This document shows positions 50,876 through 54,592 of a stretch of 64,000 nucleotides of DNA, piece after piece (position 1 is the stretch's first letter; the number at the start of each line of letters is the position of its first letter). A model generated the notes under the pieces. It was given only the letters and a program-made list of their open reading frames with translations, was not told the DNA's origin and ran no database searches. This DNA is from Escherichia phage vB_EcoM_ESCO47: the sequence record OM386662.1. The stretch is one strand, 5' to 3'. The translations under genes were made by a program, and so were the position numbers.

Positions 50876-51688
50876 TTAGAAACGAGATGCGACTTTCGCA
50901 TATAAACTTACATTAGAATTCTGTTCTACCGGAGTTTCGGTATTCCCAACTGCTTCGGTAACAAAATTAAGACCGGCAGCGTCATTGTCAACGGTATTTA
51001 TACTTTCAGTAATGGCGGTTTCTTCTTTAGTAGAACCTTTAACCATTTCTACGATAGCCGACAGTTTAGTACCAAATACGTCGGAATAATCCATTCCTTC
51101 AACCAGACCAATAACTTTTTCTTTCTGAGATTCGGTCAGGTCTTTAACGCTTTCAATAATAGCGGTTTCACGCTGAACGTAATTAATATACGCATCACGT
51201 TTGGTAACTTCTTCGAACAAATGAGCAGTTTCTGCTTTATGTTCAGCCAGCTCTTCTTCCATTTCTGCAACTACATCAACGGATTCTTCTGGAACAACAA
51301 CATTGTGTTCAACGAACAGTTCTTTAAGACCACCAAGCATGGATTCGAACAAATCAGCTTTAATGCCTTTATCGACTGCGATTTGGTTTTCGGCAAGCCA
51401 TTCTTTGGCAAGATGATCAAGGAATTTAGAAGCTTGTTCAGTCAATTTTTTATCAGCTTTGTCTTCAGCGTCTTCCTTAGCCTTTTCAACTTCCTCTTCG
51501 GCTTTTTCTGCAATAGCTTTGATATGGGATTCAGCCAGTTTAACGGCTTCCTGCTTAACGGTGGCTTCGAATACAGTGCTGAAATTAGCTTTAACGTCCG
51601 GAGACAGGTCAACTGATTCGAAAACACTATTAAGAGCAACTGAAGTCTCGATATTCTGAGCTTCTTTCAAAAGTTGTTCTTTAATCAT
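50876..51688 (-). CDS. 22: gp22 prohead core scaffold protein
   Basis: 270-aa ORF, Glu/Lys/Ala-rich, ...VYAKVASRF end as in T4 gp22. Confidence 0.9.
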   Translation of the reverse strand: MIKEQLLKEAQNIETSVALNSVFESVDLSPDVKANFSTVFEATVKQEAVKLAESHIKAIAEKAEEEVEKAKEDAEDKADKKLTEQASKFLDHLAKEWLAENQIAVDKGIKADLFESMLGGLKELFVEHNVVVPEESVDVVAEMEEELAEHKAETAHLFEEVTKRDAYINYVQRETAIIESVKDLTESQKEKVIGLVEGMDYSDVFGTKLSAIVEMVKGSTKEETAITESINTVDNDAAGLNFVTEAVGNTETPVEQNSNVSLYAKVASRF

Positions 51689-51718: not shown

Positions 51719-51726
51719 TATTTATA
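51719..51726 (-). promoter_or_regulatory. Late promoter TATAAATA for gene 22
   Basis: Plus-strand tatttata, 31 nt upstream of the gene 22 start, inside the 3' end of gene 21. Confidence 0.55.
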
Positions 51727-52363
51727 ATGCTTTTAAACTCTCTGCGAGAGCTTTAAATGCTTCATCAGCACTGTTTTTGGTGGAATCCACCATTGTTTCT
51801 GATTCTGAAATTTGTTTTGGAGTAACCCAAGCATCTGGAGCAGAAGGTCCCCATACGGCGTCAACGCCTACGGTTAATTTAAAACCTTCGTTAACAATAC
51901 GGTATCCTTTGTTGGTTTCAGTTAAAGAACCTAGACCACGAGAGGAAACGCCTGGAATCCAACCTGCACGTATATTAGCTGCTAATTTATCACCGGGACC
52001 ATGGTCACCTTCAATAATTCTAGCACGCCCATATACATCATTTCCTTTCCACCACATATCTTCGATAATGATAGCGGCTTGCATAGGGTCAACGTTTGCA
52101 CGAGGTGGATGATTTAATTCTCCAAGGGCTTGTTTAGTAACAACTTGCTCTTTAATATAATCCGAAACAGCTTTTTCTAAAACACGTTTAGGATATAAGC
52201 GTTTATTACGGTTAACTACTTCCGCCTGAAGAAAAATACCTTCTATATAAAGCCCTGGTTTTAAGCCAGAATCTTTTCCATCGTGAGATTCCAACATTGG
52301 AACACCGTCGATAATCTCACCGGGTTGACCCCAAGTTTCAATAAGTAACTCGGGAGTATTCAT
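51722..52363 (-). CDS. 21: gp21 prohead core protease
   Basis: 213-aa ORF ...LLIETWGQPGEIIDGVPMLESHDGKD...; matches T4 gp21. Confidence 0.9.
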   Translation of the reverse strand: MNTPELLIETWGQPGEIIDGVPMLESHDGKDSGLKPGLYIEGIFLQAEVVNRNKRLYPKRVLEKAVSDYIKEQVVTKQALGELNHPPRANVDPMQAAIIIEDMWWKGNDVYGRARIIEGDHGPGDKLAANIRAGWIPGVSSRGLGSLTETNKGYRIVNEGFKLTVGVDAVWGPSAPDAWVTPKQISESETMVDSTKNSADEAFKALAESLKAL

Positions 52364-52788
52364 TAACTTAATCCTAATGCTTGACGACGTTTAATAGCTT
52401 TTTTACGCTTACGCTGAGCACGAGCCTGACCAGATGGGTTGGCTTTTTTAGCTTTAACGACCTTACGAGCGATTTGTCTACGTTTTGCTTTAGAAAGACC
52501 CGTAGTTTGGAACGCATTACGTTCGCGAGTTTTACGGTCTTTAGTGCGGGTAATTTCACCGCGAGAAGAAACGTGTTTAACAATAAACTCATTTAGCTGT
52601 TCTTCGTTAATAATAGAAGCCATTGCGATAGCTAAATCCGTTTCAGTTTCAAGCATGTTCTCGATAATATTATTTATATCATTATTATCGAGAGCAGAAG
52701 ACAATGCATCGATACGGCCCTGTGCTTCAGGAATAAGTGCTTCGACATTTTCGAGTACTAATTCATAAGATTCAGGGATTAAATACAT
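52363..52788 (-). CDS. 68: gp68 prohead core protein
   Basis: 141-aa ORF, same length as T4 gp68; basic C-terminus; synteny. Confidence 0.75.
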
Positions 52789-53021
52789 TATTCGTCCTCG
52801 TCGTCTTCGTCATCTTCCGACTCATCTTCGTCTTCATACTCATCTTCGTCTTCAGACTCATCTTCGTCTTTAGGTTCTTCGCCTTCAATCATAAATTGCC
52901 TAGCAATTTCTACTTTGCGAGCTTCAACCAAACTAGTCGCTTTCGCCGCCATCGCACTTTCAAAAAATTTACGAGCAGCAACGAGGTCGTTTGATTTAAT
53001 AGCCTGAATTAAATCGTCCAT
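52788..53021 (-). CDS. 67: gp67 prohead core protein with acidic repeat tail
   Basis: 77-aa ORF between 20 and 68; C-terminal [27 protein letters not shown]. Confidence 0.7.
52801..52871 (-). repeat. 67: Tandem 18-nt coding repeat in gene 67 encoding the acidic tail
   Basis: ctcatcttcgtcttca(t/g)a repeated about three times on the plus strand. Confidence 0.7.
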
Positions 53022-54592
53022 TAAAAATCCTCTTGTTCTTGATCGGGGTCTTGGAAACGAGCCTCTTTCGACTCTTCTTCAATCTGCTTAGCCTCTTGTT
53101 CAATTTCCTCATCAGACATCTGAAGAATATCTTTCATTGCTGATCTATGAGAAATATATTTACCAATAAATGGTTCGGCCATCTGAAGCATGTTAATGCG
53201 TCGCTCCAGAATTTCAGCATCTTTTAATTCCGAGAAATAACTATCCCGATGAAATTTTATCTTAATATTATTTATTTCATCGTTCCACTCGTCTTCCGTA
53301 ATAATTCCTTTAAGAATTAAATTAGTTTTAAGCGGGTCTAGGAATATCTCTTCAAATTTATGTTGCAGCTCACGAATAAATTTACCAAATGTCAATTCAT
53401 CTCGTGTAATAGAAGTACCAGCATCAAACTGTATACCACCTTGGTCGCTTGGAATACGGGTAATAGGAATACGTAAAGCCATATAAAGCGCATTACGGAA
53501 CCAACGTACATCTTCCATATTTCCAGTATTATCTGCACCCGGTAATGTATCAACTTCTGTTACTGCTTTACCATCACGTCGTTGTAACCAATAATCTTCG
53601 GTCATCGACATAATATGCTGTTGGTTTTTAATCTTGCCTGTAGTAGCATCATATGCAATACGGTTTTTCATCGTATTCATAACATGTTGCATATGTTCTG
53701 CTGCTTTTCTTGAAGGCATATTACCTGTATCAACGTACCATACACGACGATCGGGAGCACGAGTAATACGATAAATTACGACAGCATCTTCAAGAAGTTT
53801 TAATTGGTTCGCCGGCTTAATAGCCCGATGCAAATAACCAATGATATTTTTACCACAACAATCAACTAAACCAGAATGGGCATAAACAATCGCGGCTTTA
53901 GGGATTTTTATTTTTGTGCCAGCTTCATATATGCGACCATCACAAGCATAAGATTCGTGTGATGTGTCATAAATGAAATATTCTTTATAACCCTTGACTA
54001 TTTTAACACCAGCTTCAGTGGTTGTAATAACTTCACGGACATATTGAACTTGACGTGGGTCTAAACGACGAAGCTCTTTAATACCTTCTTTAGGGCGTTT
54101 AGGGTCAATAATTTTATGGAAGAAAATTCGAGAATCTACGTACCAACGTCTAAAATGGTCTGAACCTTTACGTTGGAAAGATAAATGATTTAACACTTCG
54201 TTAAATTCATCCAACATCATTGATTTGATATTTGGACTAAATTTTGTGTTGTCTAAATTTATAGAAACGACTTCTGTATCATCTTCATACACGATAGCAT
54301 CGGAAACTATTTCAGAGACTGCATTATCCACTTCATAGTTCGTCATCAAATTTCGATACGTATCGATTAATTCACGGGTTGATTTGAGCCCTGGTTCTTG
54401 GCTACCGAACATTCTCTGAAACATAGCATTATATGTTTGCTGTGCTTCATTTTCAGATACTTCGTATTCTCTAGCACCGTCGTCTATTTTTGGAGCGGTA
54501 ATAGATTCTAAATTTTCTTTTTCTTTTTGTTGATAATCACGTTCGTCCATTTTTGCCCATGGAGCAAACAAACTTAAGATATTAAATTTCAT
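53021..54592 (-). CDS. 20: gp20 portal vertex protein
   Basis: 523-aa ORF; size matches T4 gp20 (524 aa); late promoter upstream. Confidence 0.9.

Follow-up and report, generated by a model that had tools for sequence, protein, structure and literature searches.

A tandem 18-nt array in the coding sequence of the acidic gp67 tail of Escherichia phage vB_EcoM_ESCO47

Characterization of the 18-nt array

The acidic C-terminal tail of gp67, a small prohead core protein of T4 type, in Escherichia phage vB_EcoM_ESCO47 was found to contain a stretch encoded by about three tandem copies of an 18-nt unit. We consider it likely that the array is a lineage-specific, in-frame triplication in the low-complexity GAR/GAY DNA for this disordered, polyacidic tail. 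With the same good confidence, the triplication would have originated by slippage or unequal recombination, would be tolerated under three constraints, and would lie in a peptide released by the prohead protease gp21. All positions are those of the window, which is the whole stretch of 64,000 nucleotides analysed, and gene 67 and its features lie on the minus strand.

Tandem Repeats Finder (TRF) reported a period of 18, 3.2 copies, 92% matches, and a score of 102 at 52813-52870. The array spanned 59 nt (52813-52871), with the unit consensus [A/G]AA GAC GAA GAT GAG T[C/A][T/G]. The first unit (52854..52871) began with AAA and ended with TCT (KDEDES), the second (52836..52853) began with GAA and ended with TAT (EDEDEY), and the third (52818..52835) began with GAA and ended with TCG (EDEDES), while GAC GAA GAT GAG stood between these codons in each of them. 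A partial fourth unit, GAA GA (52813..52817), completed the 3.2 copies given by TRF. The units differed at positions 1, 17, and 18 (three point differences), and showed a pairwise identity of 89% and a longest exact repeat of 16 nt. The remaining acidic end of the gene (52791..52812), consisting of the T of GAT followed by GAC GAA GAC GAC GAG GAC GAA, lay outside the 18-nt register, and the TRF period there was 9 nt. The equivalent gene 67 end (..GAG GAY GAT GAA TAATG) was kept in relatives.

A sequence-only reading of this DNA had attributed the acidic tail to a tandem 18-nt DNA repeat of about three copies, which was borne out by TRF, the codon shuffles, and the codon identity. The peptide that it gave was right in all residues but the first, which is K (AAA) and not E, and the start that it placed at 52801 was corrected to 52813, where the 18-nt array starts.

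Gene identity and genomic context

In the ORF map of the window, gene 67 occupied 52788-53021 (-) and encoded 77 aa, with the TAA stop included in the coordinates. The same reading had named the gene as gp67. This identity was upheld by the match to Pfam PF17634 (GP67) over residues 1-77 (E = 7.5e-24, 84.4 bits vs a cutoff of 27), and by the position of the gene between gp20 and gp68/gp21/gp22. In addition, the protein matched PHROG 1064 'prohead' with E = 1.9e-27. The ORF product was 100% identical to the annotated ESCO47 protein (P0001), which formed a singleton cluster from one 162,477-bp contig. ESCO47 (GenBank OM386662), whose source was horse dung, was assigned to Mosigvirus by its authors (PMC10269720).

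The surrounding head cluster was wholly on the minus strand and comprised the portal gp20 (53021-54592), gp67, gp68 (52363-52788), the protease gp21 (51722-52363), and the scaffold gp22 (50876-51688). The neighbours of gene 67 were typed by Pfam as Portal_T4, Peptidase_S77, and T4_CASP. Gene 67 thus had the gp67-type position, between portal gene 20 and genes 68, 21, and 22, with stops overlapping starts.

Two related records showed irregularities around this locus. The record MK327933.1 (phage vB_EcoM_G2285) splits the portal gene at 716-1350 into two overlapping CDSs and has about 49 bases more there than ESCO47, for which a sequencing error, a frameshift, or a duplication could account. The 49 extra bases were considered as a gp67 repeat expansion, and this was rejected because they sit in the split portal gene. 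In OL631257.1 (phage ECCR664), the region 125230-125731 measured 502 nt against the 501-nt query and was the only full-length match off by a non-multiple of three; in this unannotated record, gene 67 or its vicinity may carry a frameshift or a sequencing error.

Evidence for duplication of the unit

The observed lag-18 identity of 0.78 was attained in only one of 20,000 shuffles of the 27 tail codons; opening the test to every lag between 6 and 30 raised this to 13 of 20,000. For the given amino-acid sequence, the four D/E codons (GAC GAA GAT GAG, including the rare GAG) would coincide in all three units with a probability of 0.01-0.04. A cruder resampling of synonymous codons over the whole tail attained the observed lag-18 identity in 6-30% of resamples and was not significant; therefore, the argument for duplication at the DNA level was based on the codon identity within the units. 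The period was far above the expectation from composition, and the same synonymous codons were used in all three units, which indicates DNA duplication. Accordingly, the array is a genuine DNA duplication that has acquired three point differences since.

The resampling result, together with the finding that every gp67 tail is made of GAR/GAY codons, would also suit an account without duplication, in which the 18-nt period follows from a periodicity of the amino acids or from a limited set of codons within an Asp/Glu-rich tract. This account is very unlikely, as it has to meet the single success in 20,000 codon shuffles and the four codons common to all units. Moreover, if a periodic motif were selected, it should turn up repeatedly, but the 6-aa period was present in no other gp67 among the best 120 of the 434 homologues.

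The array was present in a single assembly (one member, one contig), and its copies might have been made or miscounted by an assembly or sequencing artefact. Such an artefact is extremely improbable, because the 59-nt array is far below the sequencing-read length and its units differ at three positions, so that it is not a collapsed or expanded identical repeat. Furthermore, the gene read through in frame, and neither its stop/start overlap nor the ribosome-binding site was disrupted.

The 89% identity of the units means either that the triplication is not very recent or that the S/Y positions are diverging under selection. The array comes from one genome, so the change may have been either an expansion in ESCO47 or a loss in relatives.

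Distribution of the array and variability of gp67 tails

The gp67 comparisons were based on the best 120 of 434 homologues, comprising ESCO47 and 119 others. The ESCO47 unit was found in none of these 119, and the next-best homologues among the 434 found aligned only to the N-terminal 58% of ESCO47 gp67. The exact array, searched as the 30-nt pattern GACGAAGATGAGTNNGAAGACGAAGATGAG over two units, gave 0 matches in viral contigs and 0 matches in GTDB genome contigs, and megablast of 52780-52900 against about 50,000 phage records gave no match. Metagenome contigs gave three matches to GACGAAGATGAGTNNGAAGACGAAGATGAG, all of which were rejected as unrelated acidic proteins. The exact array is private to ESCO47 among the collections searched; since it was present in no relative, the copy number of the exact unit is not comparable among relatives.

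The gp67 tails as a class could be compared. The N-terminal part (through P50) was 50 aa long in all of the best 120 of 434 homologues and existed in 29 variants, compared with 98 tail variants in the same set. These tails measured 21-43 aa, except for one truncated tail of 10 aa. One identical Mosigvirus N-terminus bore as many as 39 different tails (among the same 120 of 434). The exceptional short tail belonged to a 60-aa sequence (P0057) from a 683-bp ENA contig, which had a normal N-terminus, the tail EEEEKKEVVE, and a net charge of -4, and was the sole sequence outside the charge band described below; this tail looks frameshifted or truncated.

The tail DNA was compared in ten named phages of five genera and in 27 viral contigs. 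In-frame tail indels of 3, 9, 15, 45, and 54 nt, all multiples of three, were located between short direct repeats. Independent tandem repeats were also observed in gene 67 tails of other lineages: 18 nt x 2.1 with 100% matches in both AV112 and HMD-9, 15 nt x 2.1 with 100% matches in ValerieMcCarty03, 15 nt x 3.7 in 310Ecol104PP, and 21 nt x 2.5 in mogra and EP32a. Within Mosigvirus, the 15-nt core GAAGACGAAGATGAG, with one mismatch allowed, was present three times in ESCO47, twice in AV112, once each in mogra, EP32a, and L024, and not at all in L023. The core copies in AV112 were spaced by 18 nt, as in ESCO47.

This comparison of copy number among relatives, which the sequence-only reading had proposed as its check, gave core counts of 0, 1, 2, and 3 within Mosigvirus, and turnover by duplication and deletion was favoured on the evolutionary scale. 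The proposal that the repeat is length-variable by slippage is therefore retained for evolutionary time, in agreement with the 98 tails against 29 N-termini, the independent repeats, and the core copies ranging from 0 to 3.

Net charge of the tail

The net charge of the tail ranged from -14 to -23, with a median of -19, in the best 120 of 434 homologues excluding the truncated variant, while the tail length varied about two-fold. Tail length correlated with lysine content (r = 0.74) and hardly with net charge (r = 0.17). The ESCO47 tail had a net charge of -22, which was inside the family band and close to its top. The constancy of net charge despite the change in length is evidence against free tuning of charge, and argues for stabilising selection on the total tail charge, with phylogenetic non-independence as a caveat. 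It was also suggested earlier that the repeat may tune the charge of the core protein; this was unsupported, as the net charge stayed between -14 and -23 while the length about doubled.

In 28 phages, the C-terminal half of gp68 (139-142 aa in total) had a net charge of +22 to +24, and the gp67 tail of these phages had -11 to -23. No co-variation in charge between the gp67 tail and the gp68 C-terminal half was found in these 28 phages, in which gp68 was invariant at +22 to +24. The basic half of gp68 was far less variable in charge than the gp67 tail, and the two may pair electrostatically in the core.

A stronger form of the tuning idea is that the 18-nt unit slips frequently and that selection then uses these changes to set how long or how charged the core protein is, for example, to match basic core partners or head size. 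Close relatives did differ in tail length even with an identical N-terminus, the core 15-mer varied from 0 to 3 copies in Mosigvirus, and the tail of ESCO47 (-22), near the family top, was close in magnitude to the +23 of its gp68 C-terminal half. In addition, a passage of PMC1079782 cites gp67 and gp68 mutants as altering T4 head shape. Nevertheless, adaptive tuning is unlikely: longer tails added lysines and the net charge kept to its narrow band while length doubled, and the gp68 half was constant with no co-variation across the wider range of gp67 tails. Moreover, slippage would find a poorer substrate in three imperfect 18-nt copies than in a true contingency tract.

The gene 67 end and the gene 68 start

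Gene 67 and gene 68 overlapped by one base in the sequence TAATG (52786..52790), which holds the stop of the former and the start of the latter. GAGGA in the last gene 67 codons (52795..52799), 6 nt upstream of the ATG, is the likely Shine-Dalgarno sequence of gene 68. Nearly all of the 10 + 27 relatives had GAGGA or GAGGAA at this position, and in phage Merlin a ribosome-binding site was marked here by the annotators. The TAATG overlap was present in 23 of 27 related loci, and an adjoining TAAATG in three more. Tails ending in EDDE were found in 111 of the best 120 of 434 homologues, and the arrangement of GAGGA and TAATG, which is conserved across genera, is probably the reason. In L045 and L046, genes 67 and 68 were separated by a spacer of 9-15 nt, the tail end was different, and GGA followed the stop. 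The 18-nt units of ESCO47 were located upstream of this constrained 3' end.

The gene 20/67 junction (53019-53023, -) likewise read TAATG, and genes 68 and 21 shared base 52363. Genes 20, 67, 68, and 21 were thus each linked to the next by a one-base stop/start overlap, an arrangement suggestive of translational coupling.

With the gene 67 stop overlapping the gene 68 ATG and GAGGA in the last codons, the purine-rich repeat might act mainly in the mRNA, where it would aid coupled initiation of gene 68 as an unstructured leader or a standby site. The 122-nt region that covers the repeat and the start of gene 68 did fold weakly (-13.6 kcal/mol), but no more weakly than shuffled sequences (z = +0.42), and no RNA structure beyond chance was found in these 122 nt. 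The ribosome-binding site is situated in the non-repeated end, outside the 18-nt units, and any acidic tail would provide the same purine-rich leader, leaving the repeat itself unexplained. We therefore attach very little probability to a main role in the mRNA.

Protein architecture and predicted cleavage

The conserved N-terminal part of ESCO47 gp67 (residues 1-46, 52884..53021, -) was modelled by AlphaFold2 with helices at residues 2-9 and 13-43 (pLDDT 83-90). The acidic tail G47-E77 (31 aa, 3711 Da; 52791..52883, -) was predicted to be disordered, as AlphaFold2 gave coil with pLDDT 61-66. No solved structure of a relative was found. ESCO47 gp67 showed the gp67-type architecture, with a conserved 50-aa helical N-terminal part ending in (L/M)IEGEEP and a polyacidic tail after it.

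The protease gp21 cleaves after Glu in L/I-x-E (PMC9026906). The motif scan predicted an internal gp21 motif of this rule at LVE, residues 31-33 (52923..52931, -), and a site releasing the acidic tail at the MIE/G junction, residues 44-47 (52881..52892, -). The junction was situated exactly where the second helix ends in the AlphaFold2 model, and (L/M)IEGEEP was present in all of the best 120 of 434 homologues. The P3 residue of the junction motif was M in ESCO47 and in 8 of these 120 listed homologues, while relatives carried LIE, which fits L/I-x-E; cleavage at the MIE/G of ESCO47 is thus a prediction by extrapolation, as its P3 is Met and not Leu/Ile.

At residues 4-6 (53004-53012, -), Tequatrovirus gp67 carried LIE/A, a gp21-type motif, whereas ESCO47 and other Mosigvirus carried LIQA. 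ESCO47 and other Mosigvirus gp67 had LVE or LIE at residues 31-33. From LIE/A versus LIQA and the placement of LVE/LIE, the predicted N-terminal cleavage pattern differs between the genera.

The T4 prohead contains about 341 copies of gp67, which gp21 cuts into fragments, and the mature T4 head keeps about 139 copies of a 3.9 kDa gp67 fragment (PMC9026906 Table 1; PMC9958956). The L/I-x-E fragments predicted for T4 gp67 were G47-E80 with 3993 Da and others with 691, 1417, 3060, and 4458 Da. As G47-E80 was the sole predicted mass near 3.9 kDa, we infer that the tail is the retained fragment. On the basis of these computed masses, the acidic tail is probably the retained acidic internal peptide, and its counterpart in ESCO47 would be G47-E77 with 3711 Da. 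The GenBank note 'precursor to internal peptides' on T4 gp67 was consistent with the tail as an internal peptide.

It is conceivable that the released polyanionic tail of about 3.7-4 kDa leaves the head with the DNA and acts in the host, for example, as a DNA-mimicking decoy or as a counter-ion partner of basic internal proteins. The hypervariability at near-constant charge would then reflect diversifying selection and not drift, and the Ser/Tyr-punctuated triplication of ESCO47 would be one variant. We give this proposal scant probability.

Proposed origin and significance

In the explanation that we prefer, the ESCO47 array would have arisen when short direct repeats slipped during replication or recombined unequally, and the same process would continually remodel the gp67 tail in all T4-like phages. 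Unit positions 1, 17, and 18 of the array would have diverged later by point changes. From the comparison of homologues, a new tail would be tolerated if it stays a polyanion of roughly -14 to -23, if it remains attached past the conserved (L/M)IE/GEEP junction, and if it ends in the codons that hold the gene 68 ribosome-binding site and overlapping start. According to the literature on T4 and the predictions above, the N-terminal helices would co-assemble gp67 into the scaffolding core, and gp21 would then cut after Glu46, freeing the acidic peptide G47-E77, of which the T4 counterpart has about 139 copies per head and 3.9 kDa. The triplication itself is probably near-neutral. The kind of feature is already known, in that short repeats are gained and lost in the gp67 tail of every T4-like lineage; the array is real but ordinary.

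The rest of this essential head-core protein is conserved, and the acidic tail of gp67 is its one freely evolving and one indel-prone segment. The tail changes as short in-frame repeats are added and lost, while its overall negative charge is held, as are the protease junction and the ribosome-binding site of gene 68 within it. For annotation, this means that T4-like phages genuinely differ in gp67 length, and such differences should not be taken for errors. Furthermore, the tail is a possible strain-typing marker. The results also hint that it is charge, and not length or sequence, that is constrained in the retained internal peptide.

Comparison with known systems

Simple-sequence contingency loci of bacteria and phages resemble the ESCO47 array in being coding tandem repeats able to change copy number by slippage. 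However, such loci are long, uninterrupted tracts of many identical short units, and their copy-number change switches expression on or off by frameshift or promoter spacing. The ESCO47 array had only three imperfect copies (3.2 x 18 nt, 92%), its unit is a multiple of three (six codons) that brings no frame switching, and the tail indels were multiples of 3. Accordingly, a contingency (phase-variable) locus was rejected.

The closest N-terminal sequences were those of Mosigvirus (RB69-like) gp67, such as AV112, with about 80% identity. The perfect 18-nt x 2.1 repeat of AV112 has the core GAAGACGAAGATGAT, one base off that of ESCO47 and likewise spaced by 18 nt. In contrast, the AV112 unit encodes only Asp/Glu (DEDEDD) and is present in two copies instead of three, after an EEEKAS segment missing from ESCO47; in such low-complexity DNA, the AV112 and ESCO47 units cannot be proven homologous.

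The acidic tails of other scaffold or internal capsid proteins offer another likeness. The T4 gp22-derived 2.5 kDa fragment comes from another gene and sequence; like the gp67 tail, it is a charged and disordered part of a core protein. Such segments are processed by the prohead protease and partly kept in the head (PMC9026906).

T4 gp67 (PIP, PF17634) was alike in family, size, and the gene order 20-67-68-21-22. It differed in the details of the tail, which in T4 is EDEDEDEDDEDSDDKDDKKDEDSDEDEDDE (30 aa, three Lys) and in ESCO47 has 27 aa with three 6-aa Ser/Tyr units and one Lys. ESCO47 also had LIQA instead of LIE/A at residues 4-6, and MIE instead of LIE at the junction. Both proteins shared the 50-aa N-terminal part ending in IEGEEP and a polyacidic tail placed just before the overlapping start of gene 68.
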